In this document: positions 1 through 28,662 of the stretch, piece by piece
Position numbering within the stretch: position 1 is the stretch's first letter
How the letters are laid out: each line of letters starts with the position of its first letter
Assembly: GCA_050261575.1 (NCBI GenBank)
Contig: JBLNDL010000099.1
Location: 1 to 48,677 of the forward strand
Source of the DNA: Sphingomonadaceae bacterium
GTDB taxonomy: Bacteria > Chloroflexota > UBA6077
Direction: 5' to 3'
Length of the DNA: 48,677 bases
Program-made: the position numbers and the translations under genes
The notes under the pieces: generated by a model
What the model was told of the DNA's origin: nothing
Database searches by the model: none
Seen by the model: the letters and a program-made list of their open reading frames with translations, nothing else

Positions 1-210
1 GTGGACGAGGAGCGCTACTACCGGGTCGAGCGCCGCTACGGCAGCTTCCAGCGGAGCCTCGCTCTGCCCCAGGGCGTGAAGGCCGACGAGATCCAGGCCA
101 ACTACGACGACGGCATCCTCACGGTCACGGTACCGAAAGTCGAGGAGGAGAAGCCGAAGAAGATCGAGGTCAAGGCAAAGAAGGCGGTCGAGACCACGAG
201 CGCGAGCTGA
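1..210 (+). CDS. Hsp20/alpha-crystallin small heat-shock protein, C-terminal fragment (5' truncated; may not belong to this locus)
   Basis: ERRYGSFQRSLALP...A.YDDGILTVTVPK...KKIEV matches the alpha-crystallin core and IxI/V tail; followed by a homopolymer junction. Confidence 0.85.
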   Translation: MDEERYYRVERRYGSFQRSLALPQGVKADEIQANYDDGILTVTVPKVEEEKPKKIEVKAKKAVETTSAS

Positions 211-244
211 TCCCGATGCGGGCGCCGCGGCCGGCGACGGCCGC

Positions 245-304
<60 letters not shown>

Positions 305-319
305 CCCCCAACGGTCAGA

Positions 320-439
320 TCAGTGGGCTCGTCTGCGGTTCAGCAACTGCCAGTAGGCGATGAAGCAGAACACGAAGATGATGGTGATGATGTACTCCCA
401 GCCCTTGGTGTACACCAGAAACTCATGCAGGGTTTGCAC
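320..439 (-). CDS. 39-aa single-TM HmcD-like small subunit (MQTLHEFLVYTKGWEYIITIIFVFCFIAYWQLLNRRRAH)
   Basis: Translated by hand. GTG start with GAAAGGAG RBS, 23 nt downstream of the NrfD gene stop; TL.EF...TKG..Y plus a hydrophobic helix recalls Desulfovibrio HmcD. Confidence 0.75.
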   Translation of the reverse strand: MQTLHEFLVYTKGWEYIITIIFVFCFIAYWQLLNRRRAH

Positions 440-462
440 GACGTTCTCCTTTCTGCCCCTCC

Positions 463-1692
463 CTACAACTCAGAGGGGAAGTCGGGGTGCTCGTACAGGA
501 CGGGCATCCGGTTGACGATCCACCTGAAGGTGAGGATGAACACGGTCACGATGGCAATGGTGATGGCGAACTCCGACCATCTGGGGAAGTAGCGATTGGG
601 CAGCTCCCAGTTGAAGGCGACCATGCTTACGTTGATCCGGTTCAGGATGATACCGAGAACCGTGATGACGGCAGTCGCCCTGACCAGCCGCACCGATCCG
701 GTGATGGCGCCTCTGGCGAAGAGGAAGCAGGGTATCAGCACGAAGCCCAGCAACTCCACCAGGAACCAGAGCCCCAAGGGGGTCCCCAGGTAGCCCCAGG
801 CGTCGGCGTGCATGATGCCGATCAGCTTGATGCCGAAGTAGGTGAACATCACCACCGAGGCCGCCTTGCCCAGTCCCAGGGTCAGCCTCTCCAGCTTCTC
901 GTGTCCGTCGTGGCCCACCTGATCGCTGAAAACCCGATGGGAGATCATGCTCTCCACGATCACCATGGAGAGGCCGGCGAAGATGCTGGACACGAAGAAG
1001 AAGAGTGGTATCAGCGGCGAGTACCACAGGGGGTGTAGCTTGTTCGGTGCCAGCAGGAAGAGGGCTCCCAGCGCGGACTGGTGGAGGGTCGAGAGCATTA
1101 CCCCGAAGATCGTCGCTCCGAGGGCCAATCTCACCGCCCACGCCCTGAGTCTCTTCCATCCGAGCCATTCGAAGACGGCCGGCGAGAACTCCAAGAACTG
1201 GCAGGTCAAGTAGAGGGCCACGTGCCAGGCCACCAGGAACATCACCGAGGTGACCCCCATCGAGACCACCATCGGGAACGGGAGCCTCCATGGCCGGCCC
1301 AGGTCGAAGCAGAGTCCCACCACCACGAAGAAGTAGCCCAGGAACCCGGTCAGGATAGCCGGGCGGACGATCGGCTTGTACTCCTTGAGCCGGAACACGT
1401 AGACCGTGGTGGCCAGGGTGTAGCCGCCTGCGGCGAGCGCCACCCCGCACAGCACGTCGAAGCCGATCCACAGTCCCCAGGGATACTCGTCGGTGAGGTT
1501 CGTCGTGGCGGCCAGCCCCTGGGTGAAGCGCTCGACGGCTACGGCCAGCCCCACGAGGACGATGACGCCCGCGACGGCGTTGAAAGGCGTGGCCAGCGAC
1601 CTCACGTACTCGGAGAAGGTCTGACCCATGAAGAGCTTCTCTTCGACCCACGAGCGGCGTCGGACTACCTTTTCGGCATAAGTGGTCGTCAT
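463..1692 (-). CDS. NrfD/PsrC-family integral membrane protein (HybB/HmcC-like), 409 aa
   Basis: PWGLWIGFDVLCGVALAAGGY, DLGRPWR, LSTLHQSALG, HPLWYSP motifs; about 10 TM helices; ATG at 1692 with GGAGG RBS overlaps the upstream stop. Confidence 0.92.
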   Translation of the reverse strand: MTTTYAEKVVRRRSWVEEKLFMGQTFSEYVRSLATPFNAVAGVIVLVGLAVAVERFTQGLAATTNLTDEYPWGLWIGFDVLCGVALAAGGYTLATTVYVFRLKEYKPIVRPAILTGFLGYFFVVVGLCFDLGRPWRLPFPMVVSMGVTSVMFLVAWHVALYLTCQFLEFSPAVFEWLGWKRLRAWAVRLALGATIFGVMLSTLHQSALGALFLLAPNKLHPLWYSPLIPLFFFVSSIFAGLSMVIVESMISHRVFSDQVGHDGHEKLERLTLGLGKAASVVMFTYFGIKLIGIMHADAWGYLGTPLGLWFLVELLGFVLIPCFLFARGAITGSVRLVRATAVITVLGIILNRINVSMVAFNWELPNRYFPRWSEFAITIAIVTVFILTFRWIVNRMPVLYEHPDFPSEL

Positions 1693-2657
1693 CGTCGCGC
1701 CTCCTTCTGGCCCTCGGTTCCGCGCTTCTCCTGCTCGGACTTCTCGCCTCGGCGGATCAGGGCGTTGACGCCTGTCAGGGCCGCCGGCCATATCATCAGG
1801 ACGAGTGGCACCGCCAGCAGGAACTCGCGGGTGTACTCCGCCAGCGGCTTCTTACCCAGGTTCTTGGGGAAACCGATCTGCTCGAACGGAACCGCGGAGA
1901 GGTAGAGCCAGCCCGTGCCCCCGGCCTCCGTCTCGCCGAAGATGTGATCGACGTACTTGTCCGGTTCCTGGAGGATGCGCTGCCTGGCGGTCTTAAGCAG
2001 GTCGCTCCGCTTGCCGAAGATGGTGGACTTGGTGGGGCACGCGGCGGCGCAGGCGGGCGTCCCCCCGGTCTTGATGGCGTTCTCGTAGCACATGATGCAC
2101 TTCTTGATCGCCGGGGAGAGGGCGTCGTTGTACTCGAAGCTGAGGTTGCCGTAGGGACAGGCGATCATGCAGTAGCGGCAGCCCATGCAGACGCTTTCGT
2201 TGTAGACCACCGGCCCCTCGGGTGTCTTCTTCAGAGCCCCGACCAGGCAAGCTGAGGCGCAGGCGGGCTCCTCGCAGTGCATGCACTGCTCCTTGCGGAA
2301 AACGGGAGCCCCCGTGGCGGGGTTGGTGTAGCGGTTCACCACGGTGAACGCCTGGGCGCTCGGTCTCCTCTCTCTGTCCATGACGGACGGTTCTGTGGGC
2401 GGCGCAGGCAGGTTGTTGGCCTTGGCGCAGGCTGTCTCACACATGCGACAGCCGACACACTTGGTGACGTCTGTGAGCATGCCGTACCGGTCCGGGTGGC
2501 CGAGGAACTCCTCGGCTGCGTTGGCCACGCCCGTTCGGCTGAACCCTCCCAGGGCGACGGACCCTCCCAGGACGGCGGCCCCTCGGAGAAAGCCCCTCCG
2601 CGAGATCGCGGGGCCAGATGGTCCCTTGCGCTGGGCGCTGCCTCCTCGGCTTGACAT
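1689..2657 (-). CDS. Tat-exported 4Fe-4S dicluster protein (HybA/HmcB-like) with C-terminal TM anchor
   Basis: SRRGFL Tat motif; CVGCRMC..C, CMHC..PAC..C, CMGCRYC..CP and CIMC..PAC..CP give four clusters; GGT.WLYLS.VPF HybA-like motif; hydrophobic C-terminus. Confidence 0.92.
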   Translation of the reverse strand: MSSRGGSAQRKGPSGPAISRRGFLRGAAVLGGSVALGGFSRTGVANAAEEFLGHPDRYGMLTDVTKCVGCRMCETACAKANNLPAPPTEPSVMDRERRPSAQAFTVVNRYTNPATGAPVFRKEQCMHCEEPACASACLVGALKKTPEGPVVYNESVCMGCRYCMIACPYGNLSFEYNDALSPAIKKCIMCYENAIKTGGTPACAAACPTKSTIFGKRSDLLKTARQRILQEPDKYVDHIFGETEAGGTGWLYLSAVPFEQIGFPKNLGKKPLAEYTREFLLAVPLVLMIWPAALTGVNALIRRGEKSEQEKRGTEGQKEARR

Positions 2658-2682
2658 GGTACTTGCTCCCTCCACTCTCTCC

Positions 2683-3066
2683 TTATACACCCGTCATCAG
2701 GGCTGGAATGCTGAACAGCTCACAGGCCACGCACTCGGGCTTCAGCCGAGAGTCCTCGGTGTCCTGCATTACGGCCAGCCAACACGGCAGATCGGGCCGA
2801 AGAAACGCGGGGCAGGACTCCTTGACTGTGCTGGGGCACCCCTTGATTCTCCAGCAGCAGCGCTTGGCCTGGTCCTGCCGCGGCGGCGCGAGGCTCACAC
2901 CGCCCGCCGCCGCCAGGGCGGGCTCAGGGTAGAATCTGTTGAGCCGAAGCCAGAAGCGCTTGACCTGGCCCGCAAGGGTCCCCATCCCCATGAAGACTCC
3001 ATAGAGGGTGAACGCGATGACCACCAAGGCGCAGAGCACCAATCCGACGAAAACCGCGGGGCCCAC
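2683..3066 (-). CDS. Membrane-anchored Cys-rich 'two-CW'-type protein (127 aa)
   Basis: GTG start after AAAGGAGG; N-terminal TM helix; CW-x2-K-x-C-x7-CP-x8-CW-x15-CxxC. Confidence 0.75.
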   Translation of the reverse strand: MGPAVFVGLVLCALVVIAFTLYGVFMGMGTLAGQVKRFWLRLNRFYPEPALAAAGGVSLAPPRQDQAKRCCWRIKGCPSTVKESCPAFLRPDLPCWLAVMQDTEDSRLKPECVACELFSIPALMTGV

Positions 3067-3086
3067 GATGATCGCCTCCTTTCCTG

Positions 3087-3458
3087 TCAGGGCTGCATGC
3101 TGCGCGGGGGCGCCAGAAACCGCTCGCAATCGAGGCAGTCGGCCTGCAGCCTCCCGCGCTCCAGCTTCATCGCCTGCCAGCAGCGCAGCTCGGGGTGGCC
3201 GGAGGATGGGCACGAGGCCCGTCGCTCGGGTGAGCAGGCTTTGAACTCCCAGCACCGATCGGGCACGCCGGGCGTAAGCCGCCGGCTTTGGCCCGAGTCC
3301 TTCGGTCCGACCGTTGCGGGATGCTCCCCACACAGGATCTGCACCTTCTTGTCGGACTGGTGCCGGCGGTAGCCGATCAGGAAGAGGATGGTCACGGGCA
3401 TCCCCATCTGGATCGCGACCATCACCGCAACTCCCACGGCCTCTCTGATCGTGTCCAT
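3087..3458 (-). CDS. Membrane-anchored Cys-rich 'two-CW'-type protein (123 aa), paralogue of 2683-3066
   Basis: ATG after GGGAGGGG; N-terminal TM helix; CW-x2-K-x-C-x7-CP-x8-CW-x13-CxxC. Confidence 0.75.
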   Translation of the reverse strand: MDTIREAVGVAVMVAIQMGMPVTILFLIGYRRHQSDKKVQILCGEHPATVGPKDSGQSRRLTPGVPDRCWEFKACSPERRASCPSSGHPELRCWQAMKLERGRLQADCLDCERFLAPPRSMQP

Positions 3459-3656
3459 CGCCCCTCCCTCACTTGCCCAAGCAGTATCCCAGCGTCGCCG
3501 TCGGGCTCCATCGGCCTGAGGGATGGTGCTGCGGAGTGCGGGAGAGGGGAGCCACATGAACGTGAGTCGTAGGGCGTGAGCCAGAGGTATGACCGGTGGA
3601 TTCGATGGTTGCGGCGGGCATTAGCCTGGAGACCTAATACTCTTGGGTAGCGCCTA

Positions 3657-3685
3657 TTGTGCGGCGTAACGCGGAAACCTATAAT
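3657..3685 (+). promoter_or_regulatory. sigma70-type promoter for the response regulator/kinase operon
   Basis: TTGTGC-17 bp-TATAAT, about 40 bp upstream of ATG 3725. Confidence 0.55.
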
Positions 3686-3724
3686 GGTTTGGCGACATGT
3701 AGGGCGTCTGCTTGGGAGAGCTTC

Positions 3725-4393
3725 ATGGCGGAGAGGATCCGGATCCTGCTGGCGGATGACCATACGGTGTTGCGGGAGGGCATGAGGGACCTCCTCCAGA
3801 AGGAGAGCGACCTGGAGGTCGTGGGGGAGGCAGGAGACGGCGAGGAGGCCGTCCGGCTGGCTGGGATCCTGCGGCCGGACGTGGCCCTGATGGACATAGT
3901 GATGCCGAAGCTCAACGGCATCGAGGCCACTCGTCGCATCAAGGAGGTCAGTCCCTCCACCGCTGTCCTGGTTCTCACTGCCTACGAGGACGACCGCTAC
4001 ATTCTCGGCCTTCTAGAAGCCGGTGCCGCTGGCTATCTTCTTAAGAGTTCTCGGGCTTCCGATCTGGTGGGGGGCATCCGCGCCGTGTCGGCGGGGGAGT
4101 CGGTGCTGCTGCCCGCGGTCACAGCTCGGCTGCTGGCAAAGGCCGCTGCCTCGGCGGAGGGATTCTCCTGCTGTGCGAAGGGTGCGGAGCAACTGACCGA
4201 ACGGGAGTTGGAGATCCTGAGGCTCGCGGCCAAGGGGATGGGGAACAAAGAGATCGCCAGGCATCTGCTGCTGAGCGTACCGACGGTCAAGGCCCATCTG
4301 GTGAACGTCTTCAACAAGATGGGCGTGGGCTCTCGAACCGAGGCGGTGCTGCAGGCTGTGCGCAAGGGTTGGGTCGAACTGGAACCAGCCTGA
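3725..4393 (+). CDS. NarL/LuxR-family DNA-binding response regulator
   Basis: REC domain (LADDH, DVALMDIVMP, GYLLK) plus LuxR HTH (LTERELEIL...NKEIA...TVKAH). Confidence 0.95.
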   Translation: MAERIRILLADDHTVLREGMRDLLQKESDLEVVGEAGDGEEAVRLAGILRPDVALMDIVMPKLNGIEATRRIKEVSPSTAVLVLTAYEDDRYILGLLEAGAAGYLLKSSRASDLVGGIRAVSAGESVLLPAVTARLLAKAAASAEGFSCCAKGAEQLTERELEILRLAAKGMGNKEIARHLLLSVPTVKAHLVNVFNKMGVGSRTEAVLQAVRKGWVELEPA

Positions 4394-4486
4394 GGCTTCG
4401 ATGGCGGAGCTGGTTGGCCGCCGACGGCGGTGGCCTGTCGGGAAAGGAGACTAGCCTGCGCTGACGGGTGGTGCGGCGAAAGGTAG

Positions 4487-6427
4487 TTGAATTCTCCCCA
4501 CCTCTGGCTGACCCTTGCCATGGTGGCGGTCGGCGGGATCCTTCACTACTGCGACCAGCTTTCGTTGCTGCAAGCGGGTGTCTGCGCACCGCAGCCCGTT
4601 CACACCATGGATCGGGTGCTTTTCGTGGTGCCCGTCGCCTACGCCGGCTTCATCTTTGGCCCCAGGATGGGGGTCCTCATCCTCGCGGTAGTCACCTGGC
4701 TGATGCTTCCACGGGCCCTCCTCATATCCCCCTATCCCACTCGTGCGATCCTCGAGGTACTCAGCACCATCCTGGTTTCCTGCCTGATCCTCCTGTGGTT
4801 TCGGGGACAGCAGCGGGAGCGCGAACGAAGGCTGGAGGTCCTGAGCAGGCTGGAGATGGCTCGTAAGGAGCTGGCATCGCAGGTCGACGTAATCAGACGC
4901 AGCGAGCGCCGTCTGGCAGCGATCAACGAGGTTGGCAGCGTGGTGAGCCAGTCTCTGGAGCTTCCCAGCGTCCTGCAACGTGTCCTGGACCAGGTGGTGG
5001 AGGAGATGGGGGTATCGGCCGCGATGATCTTCCTGAAGGATCGGAGTGGCGAGAGGCTGGAGTTGGTGGCTCACCGCGGGGTGTCGGATGAGTTTGCCAG
5101 GGCGACGACTCCGCTCACGGTGGGGGTGGGGTTCAACGGCCGTGTGGCCCAGACGGGCGAGCCGATGGTGGTGGAGAACGTAGCCCAGGACCCGCGTCTC
5201 TGCCTGTCCGCCGTGGTCGAGGAGGGCATCCAGTCCCAGTTGATCGTGCCACTTCGCTCCAAGGGGAACACGATAGGCACTCTCTGCGTGGCCGTACGCA
5301 GCAGTCGCACCTTCTCCTGCGACGACCGGGAGCTGCTGGCCGCCATCGGCAGCCAGGTGGGGATCGCCATCGAGAACGCTCGTCTCTACCAGGAGGCGAT
5401 CAACTCCCAGGAGAAGTACCGCGACCTGTTCGACAACGCCACGGTGGCGATCTTCGTCCAGGATCTGGATGGGCGGATAACCCAGGCCAACAAGGCATGC
5501 GTAGGCCTCACTGGCTACTCCCTGGAGGAGCTTACGGGGCTCTCCGTGAGGAAGCTGATCCCTTTCCACGCCTATTCCGGCCTGGCCAAGGTTCAGCAGG
5601 CCCTGCTTCGGGGGGAAGGCTTGGCTTCACCCTACGACATTCAGATGGTGAGGCGGGACGGCAGCGAATGCATTCTCTCCATGACCACCAGACTCGTGTC
5701 CGAGAATGGACAGCCTCGGGGATTCCAGCACATCGCCATCGATGTCACCGAGCGCAGGCGGATGCGGGATACCCTGAACTACTACGTGCGGCAGGTCCTC
5801 ACCGCGCAGGAGGAGGAGCGAAAGCGGATCGCGAGGGAGCTACACGACGAGACGGCCCAATCCCTTCTCCTCACGCTGCAGAGGGTGGACGCCATCAGCT
5901 ACGGCTCGGACGTGAAGCTGCCCAAGGCGGCCGAGGCCGACCTGGAGGAGTTGCGAGGGCTGCTGCTCCAGACCCTGGGTAACGTGCGGCGACTTACTCG
6001 GGACCTGCGGCCGCAGATCCTAGACGATCTGGGGCTGGTGCCGGCCGTGGAGTGGCTGGTGGAGGAGGTGGAGAAGCAGTGTGGGCTGAAGGGCACCGTC
6101 CAGGTGGTTGGGCGGCGCCGGCAGTTGCCGCAGGAGACTCAACTGCTGCTCTTCCGCATCGCCCAAGAGGCGCTGAGCAACGTGCGCAAGCACTCGGCCG
6201 CGACGGAGGCATCGGTGGTGCTGAGCTTCGGCAAGGATCGGGTGAGCATCACCATCGAGGATAACGGCCGGGGGTTCCGGATGCCCGATAACGTGAGCGA
6301 ACTGGCCAGCAGCGGGAAGCTGGGGCTCCTGGGCATGTCCGAGCGGGCGCGGCTGGCGGGCGGATCGCTGTTCATCGATGCCCTGCCAGGCCGCGGGACC
6401 CGGGTGGTCGCCGAGCTGGCGGGCTAG
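4487..6427 (+). CDS. Membrane sensor histidine kinase, TM-GAF-PAS-HisKA_3-HATPase
   Basis: About 4 N-terminal TMs; GAF (VPLRSKG..IGTL...AIENARLY); PAS; EERKRIARELHDE; QEALSNVRKH; DNGRGF; GLLGMSERA. Confidence 0.95.
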   Translation: MNSPHLWLTLAMVAVGGILHYCDQLSLLQAGVCAPQPVHTMDRVLFVVPVAYAGFIFGPRMGVLILAVVTWLMLPRALLISPYPTRAILEVLSTILVSCLILLWFRGQQRERERRLEVLSRLEMARKELASQVDVIRRSERRLAAINEVGSVVSQSLELPSVLQRVLDQVVEEMGVSAAMIFLKDRSGERLELVAHRGVSDEFARATTPLTVGVGFNGRVAQTGEPMVVENVAQDPRLCLSAVVEEGIQSQLIVPLRSKGNTIGTLCVAVRSSRTFSCDDRELLAAIGSQVGIAIENARLYQEAINSQEKYRDLFDNATVAIFVQDLDGRITQANKACVGLTGYSLEELTGLSVRKLIPFHAYSGLAKVQQALLRGEGLASPYDIQMVRRDGSECILSMTTRLVSENGQPRGFQHIAIDVTERRRMRDTLNYYVRQVLTAQEEERKRIARELHDETAQSLLLTLQRVDAISYGSDVKLPKAAEADLEELRGLLLQTLGNVRRLTRDLRPQILDDLGLVPAVEWLVEEVEKQCGLKGTVQVVGRRRQLPQETQLLLFRIAQEALSNVRKHSAATEASVVLSFGKDRVSITIEDNGRGFRMPDNVSELASSGKLGLLGMSERARLAGGSLFIDALPGRGTRVVAELAG

Positions 6428-26031: not shown

Positions 26032-26295
26032 CTACCTTCCTCCTAGAAGATGGTGCGGGAATCGCCGGGGAAGCTGCGGAACGGCCCACTCGGGTCGCCC
26101 GCGGGGCCAGCATAGCATAGCAGACGATGTTGGTGCACGGAGCATTCGGCCCGCGACCCGATGAGAGGACGGAACGAGAAATGCGCATTTCGCAAGAGGA
26201 CTCCGGGACGGCGACCTGCTGTCGACCCGCAGCGTTCGTGGAGCGGGGTCGGAGGCGCCGCCTCGGGGTGCTCGTCGAGAAAGGATTGTTGTGTC

Positions 26296-26925
26296 TTGAA
26301 AGCCGCTCCCTTCTTCCTGATCTTCGCCATACTGCTCGGCGGGGTCCTGGTCGCGGTGCAGACGGCCGTCAGCTCCGAGGAGGAAGACGTGGGCGTGGAG
26401 CGACCGACGGTCACCCCCAGGCCGCGCCCCACCTCGCCGCCCAGGGAGTCCGCCACCGTGCCGACCCCCGGTTTGCTTTCCGGAGCCACCTCCGGCGTGG
26501 CATCGCCCACTGCCGCCCCTCAGGCGGCGACTTCGCCACCGCCCCCGACCGCGACGCCACCTGCCAGCCCCAGCTCCGTGCCGCAGGTGGCTCCGCCGCC
26601 CTCACCGAGCCCCGCGGCCACGGCTACGGCAGTGCCCGTCGGTTCGCCGACTCCGGGTTCGGGCCCGTCGCCGACTGCCCAGGTCGCGGCGCCGTCACCC
26701 TCGCCCACGGCAGGGTGGATGATGCGAGTGGGCAACACGGATGGGCAGGGGGTGTATCTGCGACGCACTCCGCGCATGGACGACACAATCCGGCCCTGGG
26801 TAGATGGCACCCCGATGGTCGTGCTCGGCCCGCCCGAGACCGGTGAGGGGCATAGCTGGCTCAGGGTGCGGGCGCCGGACGGGACCGAGGGCTACATCCC
26901 GGTGCAGTACCTGGTGGGAGGGTAG
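26296..26925 (+). CDS. Membrane-anchored Pro/Thr-rich protein with C-terminal SH3-like domain
   Basis: TTG after AAAGGA; N-terminal TM; PT/PS-rich linker; GNTDGQGVYLR..P...W..V..PDG.EGYI...YL. Confidence 0.75.
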   Translation: MKAAPFFLIFAILLGGVLVAVQTAVSSEEEDVGVERPTVTPRPRPTSPPRESATVPTPGLLSGATSGVASPTAAPQAATSPPPPTATPPASPSSVPQVAPPPSPSPAATATAVPVGSPTPGSGPSPTAQVAAPSPSPTAGWMMRVGNTDGQGVYLRRTPRMDDTIRPWVDGTPMVVLGPPETGEGHSWLRVRAPDGTEGYIPVQYLVGG

Positions 26926-26955: not shown

Positions 26956-28662
26956 TCAGGCGGCCTTGTGGCAGCTCAGACAGGAGCCGTCCTGCCTGCC
27001 CTGGTGGTTATCTGGCATCCCCAGGCCGCCCGTTGCCCCGACGCCGGGTCCTCCTGCGGTATGGCAGGTGGAGCACTGCTCCCTACCCTGGGTTGGATGG
27101 GGCGTATTGGGGATCGCGGTGGGAGCCGAAGGCTGGCCCTGAGTGGAGGCGACGGGGGCGCCGGAGGGCTGCTGATCCCCCGTGGCCTGCTGGGCAGGAG
27201 ACGCCGGGGGCTGCTGGGCCGGCGCGGGCTCGGACTGGGCTGGAGCACCCTGCGCAGCCGACGCTACGGGTGCTGGCGCCGGTGGAGCCGGTTGCGTCAG
27301 GTAGTGGCAGGTCTGGCAGTCGGCACCGATGGTCCGCCCCTTCGCCTCACCCTGAATGCCCACCAGCTTGCCGTGGCAGCGCATGCAGCCGTCGTGGCCA
27401 ACCCAGTCGGGGTAGGTGCTCGGGGTGACTCGCATGTGGGGGAATACCGTGCGCTGGTATATCCTCTTCGCCTCTGCCACCGCCTGCCCGATTTCCGCCT
27501 GATGCTCAGCATAGACCTGGGGCTGCTGGATGCGATAGAAGGCATCGATGCTGTCGATCCTCCCCAGCGCCTCCCGGTACTCCTCCTCGCTGATGCTTTG
27601 GCCGATCTCCCCCACGGCCTGCATCACCTGCTGCTTGATGAAGGGGATCTTCGAGTTGATTCTGCCCTCCAACATAGCGCGGTCCACCTCCTCCTGCACG
27701 GGAGCGAAGTGATGGGCGGTGCGGTTGTGGCAGTCGATGCAATCCATGAAGCGCTCTTCCCTCTCGATCCGCTGCGGAGTCACCTCCGCCTGCCTGTCGG
27801 GCAGGGCGAACTCGTCCACTGTCCCGTCGGGCTTCTCCACCCGTACCCAGCCGATCTCGCTGCGGGATTCGTTTAGCGGCAGGTAGTACACCTTGGCGGT
27901 GGTGTGCCAATGGATTCCCTCGCCTCGGGCGCTACCGCCGACGCGAAAGATCATCGGCTGGACTTTGGGGGTGTTCTGCTCGTCCTGAGCGTAGTGGACG
28001 ATGTTCCGCTGCAGGTCGCCGTAGAAACGCTCGGGTCGGTGGCACTGCTCGCAGGTGTCCCGGCTCGGGCGCAGGTCCTGGATCGGGACCTCGATTGGCC
28101 GGGAGTAGAGCCCCAGGCTATAGCTGAACACCTGCCGGATGCCGGAGATCTTGGACTTAACCAACCAGGGAGCGCCGGGGCCAATGTGACAACTGACGCA
28201 GCTCACTCGGGCGTGCGAGGAGGCCTCGTAGGCAGCACCCTCGGGCTCCATCACCCTGTGGCATACGTCACCGCAGAACTCCTTGGTCTCCATGAACTCG
28301 GCAGCGCCGTAGGTGGTGACGGCCATGAGGGAGAGGATGCCCGCGGTGACCCCCGCGAAGATGGCCAGCCCACGCCGCTGCCGGGAGTCGTTCAAGTCGA
28401 GAATGGGGAACGCCTTGGCCACCAAGCCGAGGCGGGCCAGACGCCGCCGCTCTCTCAGGACCCCGATCGGTATCAACAGCAGCCCCAACGTCAGGATGGC
28501 AGGGCCCACGAGGAAGGTGAGAATGCCAGTGTAAGGGCTGGCGATCGCCCCGGTGGCGCCCAACACCAGCAGGACGAGGACGATCACGAGGGAGAAAATC
28601 GCCATGACCGCGCCTAGGAGACTGACGGGGTTGACCATGGCCGCGGGATACTTGCCTTCCAT
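26956..28662 (-). CDS. NapC/NirT-type membrane multiheme cytochrome c (8 predicted hemes)
   Basis: 3 N-terminal TMs; CGDVCH, CVSCH, CEQCH, CIDCH, CMRCH, CQTCH, then a P/A/Q linker and CSTCH, CLSCH. Confidence 0.9.
   Translation of the reverse strand: MEGKYPAAMVNPVSLLGAVMAIFSLVIVLVLLVLGATGAIASPYTGILTFLVGPAILTLGLLLIPIGVLRERRRLARLGLVAKAFPILDLNDSRQRRGLAIFAGVTAGILSLMAVTTYGAAEFMETKEFCGDVCHRVMEPEGAAYEASSHARVSCVSCHIGPGAPWLVKSKISGIRQVFSYSLGLYSRPIEVPIQDLRPSRDTCEQCHRPERFYGDLQRNIVHYAQDEQNTPKVQPMIFRVGGSARGEGIHWHTTAKVYYLPLNESRSEIGWVRVEKPDGTVDEFALPDRQAEVTPQRIEREERFMDCIDCHNRTAHHFAPVQEEVDRAMLEGRINSKIPFIKQQVMQAVGEIGQSISEEEYREALGRIDSIDAFYRIQQPQVYAEHQAEIGQAVAEAKRIYQRTVFPHMRVTPSTYPDWVGHDGCMRCHGKLVGIQGEAKGRTIGADCQTCHYLTQPAPPAPAPVASAAQGAPAQSEPAPAQQPPASPAQQATGDQQPSGAPVASTQGQPSAPTAIPNTPHPTQGREQCSTCHTAGGPGVGATGGLGMPDNHQGRQDGSCLSCHKAA

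Follow-up and report, generated by a model that had tools for sequence, protein, structure and literature searches.

The 48,677-nt window analyzed here is the whole of contig C99 of a Chloroflexota genome assembly (3.72 Mb, 103 contigs). Positions 320 to 6427 hold a complete copy of a conserved Chloroflexota unit, a five-gene operon coding for two small Cys-rich proteins (CW-A and CW-B) and for homologs of HmcB, HmcC, and HmcD, together with a divergent response regulator and sensor kinase (Table 1). HmcB, HmcC, and HmcD are the cofactor-poor core of an Nhc/Hmc-type complex. If domain fusions and gene neighborhoods are a guide, the unit would be a quinone module of this type that does without its cytochrome, with the CW subunits acting as a redox or metal sensor that is tethered to the complex and serves the adjacent two-component system, a proposal to which we give about an even chance of being right. 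The core of iron-sulfur (FeS) protein, NrfD-type protein, and small helix is already known; what is new is the variant that lacks the cytochrome and begins with two CW proteins.

NrfD-type complexes have a central place in anaerobic respiration, and outside Proteobacteria and Desulfobacterota little is known of how they are regulated or of their accessory subunits. The locus defines a conserved core of the Nhc/Hmc type from which the cytochrome has been lost. It also defines a family of small membrane proteins whose six-Cys domain is unpublished and has no detectable structural relative, and it offers the testable hypothesis that respiratory complexes of Chloroflexota carry their own tethered redox sensor.

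An operon conserved gene for gene that ends at hmcD

A metagenome collection was scanned with a back-translated motif specific to CW-B-type proteins. All five contigs recovered (L210 to L214) carry the divergent regulator-kinase pair, CW-A, CW-B, HmcB, HmcC, and HmcD, with L211 and L212 broken off by their own contig ends. L211, L213, and L214 hardly differ from one another, so the five contigs stand for about three lineages. Conservation of the operon gene for gene in all five contigs means that its members are not chance open reading frames (ORFs), and in all five pattern matches CW-B-type proteins are confined to this type of operon. The similarity is high throughout the unit: the window NrfD protein scores 718 and 659 bits against its L213 and L210 orthologs, and the kinase scores 891 bits against that of L213. 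The five minus-strand genes that the preliminary description had reported are all present as it described them. Its intergenic gaps of 5 to 23 nt come close to what we measure, namely 20, 25, and 23 nt and one 4-nt ATGA overlap, the exact values depending on the start codons chosen.

The end of the operon lies next to a break in the contig, as had been suspected. The G22/C36 run there has counterparts at other contig ends: in 17 of the 103 contigs of the assembly, a stretch of 15 or more G or C lies no further than about 250 nt from an end. We therefore take it to be a sequencing or assembly artefact. No overlap of either flank (bases 1 to 244, or 303 onward) with other contigs of the assembly was found, and together with the artefact run this makes the sequence beyond hmcD unreadable in the genome itself. 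Bases 1 to 244 are not reliably adjacent to the operon; they code for just a C-terminal fragment (69 aa) of an Hsp20 protein that has no second copy in the assembly.

The orthologous contigs supply what the window cannot. About 300 nt beyond hmcD, L213 and L214 have a CDF cation-efflux gene (PF01545), and in L210 a convergent kinase-regulator pair comes after hmcD; no redox-related gene directly follows hmcD in any of the three. Because non-redox genes follow hmcD wherever orthologous contigs continue, the operon ends at hmcD, with no concealed gene for a cytochrome, hydrogenase, or molybdoenzyme beyond it. The proposal of a module with neither cytochrome nor catalytic subunit in cis is thus borne out, and the gene that would have spoken against it, one for a hydrogenase, molybdopterin, or cytochrome subunit directly downstream, is missing from L210, L213, and L214 alike.

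Table 1. Features of the window discussed in the text, with coordinates in the window
Feature	Positions	Strand	Details
HmcD/NhcD-like single-helix subunit, last gene of the operon	320-439	-	39 aa
HmcC/NhcC-like NrfD-family integral membrane subunit	463-1692	-	409 aa
HmcB/NhcB-like Tat-exported 4x[4Fe-4S] protein, C-terminal membrane anchor	1689-2657	-	322 aa
CW-B	2683-3066	-	127 aa; GTG start, AGGAGG ribosome-binding site upstream
CW-A	3087-3458	-	123 aa; ATG start, GAGGGAGGGG ribosome-binding site upstream
CCGATG-N19-GATACT element	3483-3514	-	~25 nt upstream of the CW-A ribosome-binding site
NarL/MadR-type response regulator, divergent from the operon	3725-4393	+	PF00072 95.1 bits, PF00196 (GerE) 70.5 bits
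Sensor kinase	4487-6427	+	~four N-terminal membrane helices, GAF, PAS, HisKA_3, HATPase_c (Pfam)
Octaheme cytochrome, membrane-anchored, NrfH/NapC-like N-terminal module	26956-28662	-	8 CxxCH; PF03264, TIGR03153
Poly-G (245-266)/poly-C (267-302), G22/C36 contig-end artefact	245-302		sequencing or assembly origin

A cofactor-poor Nhc/Hmc-type core

In the FeS protein, a twin-arginine translocation (Tat) signal scores 21 bits (TIGR01409, cut-off 16.7), the Cys residues form four groups, one per [4Fe-4S] cluster, and the C-terminal helix is hydrophobic. Its top score among 34 families is that against HmcB (NF045715; 366.9 bits, cut-off 420), with HybA second (230.1 bits, cut-off 263). The integral membrane protein passes the Pfam NrfD model (PF03916) with 73 bits against a gathering cut-off of 25.8 and scores 532.8 bits against HmcC (NF045714, cut-off 550), HybB being its second-best family (256.1 bits, cut-off 450). 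The 39-aa ORF passes the HmcD model NF045712 (40.3 bits, cut-off 34).

The Tat FeS, NrfD-type, and one-helix subunits follow each other in the same B-C-D order as in the NhcABCD and HmcABCDEF complexes of Desulfovibrio. The resemblance is to Nhc in particular, which is listed in Table 1 of PMC8076601 as NhcA, NhcB, NhcC, and NhcD with no E or F subunits, since the window operon likewise stops at D. The differences from both Desulfovibrio complexes are nevertheless considerable: no HmcA/NhcA cytochrome is found in the window operon, the orthologous contigs, or the genome, two CW genes stand upstream, the B and C proteins fall just under the equivalog cut-offs, and the host belongs to the Chloroflexota and is not a sulfate reducer. 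An intermediate form is seen in a genome of the same family (G002), where an HmcD helix fused to an 8-heme cytochrome is followed by HmcB and HmcC.

The missing subunits were looked for in several ways. Neither the HmcA model (NF045713) nor the NhcA model (NF045784) matches anything in the genome, both being weak negatives since these models matched no control genome either, and the one match of the HmcE model (NF045716) in the genome, of 23 bits, lies on a different contig; downstream of hmcD in L210, L213, and L214 this model matches nothing. No CxxCH-rich ORF was found in the window operon or the orthologous contigs, and a tblastn search of the genome found no equivalent of the 8-heme cytochromes of related loci (described below). 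The window has no hydrogenase genes, and the sole NiFe-type (PF00374) match in the genome is a weak one of 70 positions on contig C47.

Hydrogenase-2 of Escherichia coli provides a second comparison. Its HybA and HybB are an FeS and NrfD membrane module for catalytic subunits that have no anchor of their own, and the window pair is built in the same way; the HupX/OmeB pair of Dehalococcoides is likewise such a module for catalytic subunits without a membrane anchor. Unlike these two pairs, however, the window pair has no adjacent hydrogenase or reductive dehalogenase genes, and its scores lie well under the HybA and HybB cut-offs.

The two-component system

With receiver and GerE domains in the regulator and HisKA_3 and HATPase_c domains in the kinase, the divergent pair is a NarL-type two-component system by Pfam. 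The regulator ORF opens at 3659, and the start at 3725 is the one that fits the L210 to L214 orthologs (342 to 377 bits). The CCGATG-N19-GATACT element is kept in all four aligned orthologous intergenic regions upstream of CW-A and may be a promoter or a regulator-binding site. A sigma-70 consensus scan of positions 200 to 4000 found no promoter and one terminator-like site, inside hmcD, which is fewer than the 1.7 expected from shuffled sequences.

CW genes beside cytochromes, FeS/NrfD pairs, and kinases in other Chloroflexota

A profile search of 401 Chloroflexota genomes detected the CW family in 48 of them, including that of the window. For comparison we used 29 loci, score-selected from related genomes so that all counts over them are descriptive and not independent: regions of 16 kb around 20 of the top-ranking matches with a locus, and nine from a pattern scan of species genomes. 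The scan gave at least 16 true CW genes among the 120 matches listed; 104 of the 120 had no domain, and six loci of 636 bases and one duplicate were also excluded. All ten of the true CW matches checked among those listed are of Chloroflexota origin.

In the common arrangement, seen in 19 of the 29 loci, CW is followed on the same strand by an 8-heme cytochrome with a C-terminal anchor, and in 18 FeS and NrfD genes come next, so that the conservation of CW genes beside NrfD and FeS homologs, which had been anticipated, holds well beyond the window. A HisKA_3 kinase and a NarL-type regulator lie directly upstream of CW on the same strand in 15 of the 29 loci (15 of 24 when loci with less than 3.7 kb of upstream flank are set aside). 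L210, L213, and L214, the orthologous contigs that extend far enough on that side, all have such a pair as well, and the NarL-type neighbor pointed out in the preliminary description is a conserved feature. Five loci (L043, L056, L077, L087, and L123) have CW after the kinase-regulator pair, and neither an FeS/NrfD pair nor an 8-heme (MHC8-type) cytochrome was detected in their fetched flanks; two of them, L056 and L087, have a pair of an MHC9-type cytochrome and a cytochrome b on the opposite strand. A pair of a 9-11-heme cytochrome and a cytochrome b is present in the region of 11 of the 29 loci.

Relative to this common CW locus, the window lacks the 8-heme cytochrome and has a second, B-type CW gene in the cytochrome's slot, its HmcD is free-standing, and its regulator-kinase pair is divergent. 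The earlier suggestion that the CW pair replaces the cytochrome therefore describes the position of CW-B correctly; it does not describe that of CW-A, since a CW gene precedes the 8-heme cytochrome in 19 of the 29 loci. Nine of the loci (L050, L052, L057, L058, L060, L062, L068, L070, and L093) have clusters of kinase, regulator, CW, 8-heme cytochrome, FeS, and NrfD genes that share with the window the CW family, the FeS/NrfD pair, and the NarL-type regulator. They differ in having kept the cytochrome, in having a single CW gene, and in having kinase, regulator, and CW on one strand. Their FeS and NrfD proteins are more DsrO/QrcC/QrcD-like than those of the window, and their kinases match the window kinase over the catalytic core alone (39% over 228 aa).

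The six-Cys CW domain

CW-A and CW-B are paralogs (39% identity over 51 aa, E 6e-11) with no match in Pfam (E<=10) or NCBIfam (E<=0.01). An exhaustive phmmer search with CW-B returned 125 representative proteins at E<=1e-3, nearly all of 59 to 171 aa and one of 1593 aa; a word-indexed search with CW-A found three homologs, and in three records of metagenome-assembled genomes (MAGs) homologs with consecutive accessions pair as CW-A and CW-B. A locus search with CW-B alone matched 91 pattern stretches with no relative among them. Six Cys and two C-W pairs are invariant both in 39 full-length proteins (alignment A1) and in 33 domain segments (alignment A5), with the pattern C-W-x4-C-x7-C-P-x8-C-W-x14/15-C-x2-C; in CW-B the invariant residues are C71, C77, C85, C95, W96, C112, and C115. 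That the CW proteins are "metal-binding-type", as the preliminary description has it, is a deduction from these six invariant Cys.

The motifs C-W, C, C-P, C-W, and C-x2-C, invariant in a Cys-rich stretch of about 55 residues, are of the kind that we take to define the two-CW family of NCBIfam (NF045718), a definition drawn from the family's name and from the related soluble protein P0142, which matches this model at E 1.4e-5 (25.4 bits). Weak matches to it come from 8 of 39 CW relatives (best E 0.15), and across the window's own genome it has no match at E<=10. The pattern of the NF045718 two-CW protein, C-W...C...C-P...C-W...C-x2-C, is that of CW-A and CW-B, which unlike it add an N-terminal membrane helix. 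On these motifs, CW-A and CW-B appear to be a divergent branch of NCBIfam's two-CW domain, which is named but unpublished; no published description, function, or structure of this domain or of the operon was found in the literature searched.

Both CW proteins are single-pass, with an Arg/Lys run after the membrane helix, and the family has two kinds of N-terminal helix, the widespread A-type of CW-A and the B-type of CW-B. In L212 a 48-aa ORF between CW-A and CW-B (positions 3162-3308) consists of a B-type membrane helix without the Cys domain. The CW domain of CW-A and CW-B faces the cytoplasm, to judge from its occurrence elsewhere either in soluble proteins or joined to kinase and MerR domains, which are cytoplasmic.

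AlphaFold (AF2) gives confident small helical models, with a mean predicted local distance difference test score of 83.4 for the whole of CW-B and 76.5 for the domain alone. A Foldseek search of the PDB with the full CW-B model gave 0 matches, and the wide VIA structure search with it picked up just the membrane helix, matched to long helices and coiled coils (Z <=5.6). The domain-only model had 0 Foldseek matches and no chain with Z>=2 among 48,161. PDB sequence-profile searches from A1 and A5 found nothing meaningful, and a protein atlas has just unnamed Chloroflexota clusters for CW, with every structure row at TM<0.4. The complex of HmcC (alignment A3) and CW-A (alignment A4) was predicted with a score of 0.00, which speaks neither for nor against binding.

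A domain shared by kinases, regulators, and redox operons

The CW domain is found in several other contexts. In a Dehalococcoidia MAG, the protein P0037 is a natural fusion of an HmcD helix with a CW domain (NF045712, E 5e-6), and the window HmcD matches its N-terminus with 53% identity over 34 aa (E 5e-14). In L051 and L111, whose NrfD proteins are the most similar to the window's among the 29 loci, an extra N-terminal helix on NrfD has the A-type motif and resembles the helix of CW-A. L194 codes for a hybrid kinase, REC-GAF-GAF-PAS-HisKA-HATPase_c, with a C-terminal CW domain, and in two genomes of the window's own family MerR helix-turn-helix proteins have a CW-like C-terminus (hhalign probability 78.6%, E 1.7e-5). 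These MerR genes (L011:5188-5619 in G001 and L012:8667-9038 in G003) lie beside a locus with HdrD-like, NarI-like, FeS (no Tat signal), and 620-aa NrfD proteins and are also near NifB/NifX-like and Mrp/MinD-like genes.

Soluble copies of the domain keep the company of the same type of kinase. By a Pfam scan of their neighbors, the soluble two-CW genes of L183 and L189 are divergent from a pair of response regulator and GAF-PAS-HisKA_3 kinase, and the kinase of L183, an ortholog of that of the window, shares 39% identity with it over 651 aa, the membrane region included. In L183 (6142-12163), L059 (1996-8824), and L188 (116-6331), from small low-GC Dehalococcoidia-like genomes, the soluble gene is the first of an operon that also codes for a NuoE-like protein, a NuoF::GltD-like protein of about 1,046 aa, and a NuoG/FdhA-like molybdopterin protein. 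The ORF layout of L187 is like that of L183, and the genes downstream in L189 differ, coding for a cyclic-nucleotide (cNMP)-binding protein and an acetyl-CoA-synthetase-like enzyme. Three further genomes (G337, G113, and G170; L184:5598-6507, L185, and L186) have up to six two-CW matches each, with tandem pairs of soluble two-CW genes for proteins of about 120 aa among them. Based on the L183 and L189 neighborhoods and on P0037, L051, and L111, the CW domain appears to travel with the window-type kinase across different redox operons and to have been joined as well to HmcD and NrfD helices.

These contexts could also be understood if CW-A and CW-B were redox-active Fe-S subunits, providing electron entry or exit at the cytoplasmic side as a minimal substitute for HmcE/HmcF or as ferredoxin-like carriers for any redox enzyme encoded after them. 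The CW genes are in one operon with the FeS-NrfD core and 20 to 25 nt before the next gene, the HmcD::CW fusion exists, soluble two-CW genes head the NuoE/F/G-like operons of L183, L059, and L188 as a dedicated carrier might, and the domain has six invariant Cys, one of them in a C-P pair. Against this, the operon encodes no heme b or other transmembrane wire, while NrfD proteins are described in PMC8076601 as lacking a cofactor and having a quinone site near the outer face. Fusion to a kinase and to MerR is typical of sensors, not of electron carriers, and in 5 of the 29 loci, where CW comes after the kinase-regulator pair, no FeS/NrfD pair or MHC8-type cytochrome was detected in the fetched flanks. 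We consider an electron-carrying role fairly unlikely on these grounds.

It would be more surprising still if the CW proteins were assembly or maturation factors, for instance cytoplasmic chaperones for cofactor insertion or for Tat export of the FeS subunit, even though they are small, Cys-rich, cytoplasm-facing, and first in operons for cofactor-rich enzymes. CW proteins also lead the cytoplasmic NuoEFG-like operons, which need no Tat export, kinase and MerR regulators have the domain as a fusion, and the conserved membrane helix with its fusions to HmcD or NrfD favors a stable over a transient association. A maturation role is accordingly very improbable.

A proposed tethered sensor on a respiratory complex

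In the reading that we favor, in which the CW subunits are a sensor on the complex, electrons would move, by way of tail-anchored HmcB at the outer face, between the quinone site of HmcC and redox proteins of the periplasm whose genes lie elsewhere; this transfer may, from what is known of the family, be coupled to proton movement. If quinones are absent, the HmcBCD core could instead act as a membrane anchor and proton path. The helices of CW-A and CW-B would dock on HmcC and HmcD, as the fusions and the gene neighborhood suggest, and the six-Cys domain might hold a metal or Fe-S center at the inner face and report redox or metal state. This signal would then be passed to the adjacent kinase, completing a three-component loop that controls the operon. 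In LiaFSR-type three-component signaling, a HisKA_3 kinase and a NarL-type regulator work with a small membrane accessory protein, and in the case of the cbb3 oxidase and PrrBA the signal to the kinase is drawn from a respiratory complex. No sequence relationship to LiaF or cbb3 subunits was found, none having been looked for, and unlike these systems the window has an accessory protein with a six-Cys domain and a kinase with GAF and PAS domains. If the sensor role is real, the CW domain would be a new input module for bacterial two-component signaling; at about 55 residues it is tractable for spectroscopy and structure work, and the family would make it easier to assign many genes now called "hypothetical" in genomes of Chloroflexota and Dehalococcoidia.

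Several observations weigh against this reading. The sensor role is argued from domain fusions and gene neighborhood, from which cofactor, binding, and signaling are all deduced, and the neighborhood counts come from the selected loci described above. CW is always the first gene of the regulated operon, so it may be connected with the kinase as a target under its control and not as a partner. For input, moreover, the kinase already has its own GAF and PAS domains. Neither CW-A nor CW-B matches NF045718 at E<=0.01 (its cut-off is 35 bits), so that no curated model was reached. Among genomes of the same family (G001 to G004) there are no clear CW genes, and G002, whose NrfD is 53% identical to the window's, has the core in a heme-bearing version, an HmcD-like helix fused to the 8-heme cytochrome followed by HmcB and HmcC. 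As for the quinone, the equivalogs of MenA (TIGR00751), MqnA/D (PF02621), and MqnC were not found in the genome or fall below cut-off, and there is just a sub-threshold MenB-like gene that adjoins a UbiA-family gene on contig C95.

A more radical version would make the whole unit a signaling device and not a respiratory enzyme, with HmcBCD as a receptor that samples periplasmic electron carriers or the quinone pool and relays their redox state through CW-A and CW-B, with a new Fe-S or thiol sensor fold, to the kinase, and with the trio of CW, kinase, and regulator re-used in Chloroflexota for at least three kinds of redox operon. If this were true, the operons controlled would be those for HmcBCD, for the 8-heme cytochrome with FeS and NrfD, and for the cytoplasmic NuoEFG/formate-dehydrogenase-like enzymes. 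We regard it as a long shot.

The octaheme cytochrome and other possible redox partners

Since the module has no partner in cis, the preliminary description proposed a plug-in, quinone-coupled dock whose partner would be the octaheme cytochrome of the window, with the CW proteins standing in for the missing cytochrome. Octaheme homologs do occur within 8 kb of CW in 7 of the 29 loci. In all seven, however, the octaheme gene belongs to a separate operon with its own cytochrome b and a 9-11-heme cytochrome, and the octaheme protein has an NrfH/NapC-like membrane quinol-dehydrogenase module of its own. The gene is 23 kb distant in the window, no homolog of it was detected on L210, L213, and L214, and CW domains that are cytoplasmic cannot replace a periplasmic cytochrome. 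The case for this docking partner is thus weak, and we think the proposal quite unlikely to be right. Because the octaheme protein comes with its own cytochrome b, multiheme partner, and quinol-dehydrogenase module, what the data support is that the two belong to a common pathway or regulon, and not that the octaheme protein docks to the HmcBCD module. The genome offers other proteins that could dock: further multiheme cytochromes on contigs C5, C1, and C43 and seven molybdoenzyme loci are all candidate redox partners of HmcBCD.

Some features of these loci may be recorded here. Beside the octaheme gene, a 254-aa ORF (26161-26925) with no Pfam match has a membrane helix and a long linker rich in Pro, Ser, Thr, and Ala. 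On C5 (155802-168965; L197), two paralogous operons each code for a multiheme cytochrome (11 and 9 CxxCH) and a cytochrome b561-type protein. Upstream of the first operon is a gene that shares 49% identity with the one after hmcC in G002. Two molybdopterin oxidoreductase frames, C18:15997-17256 and C6:44495-45859, have one in-frame TGA each, which may code for selenocysteine, and the gene on C6 adjoins another NrfD gene.

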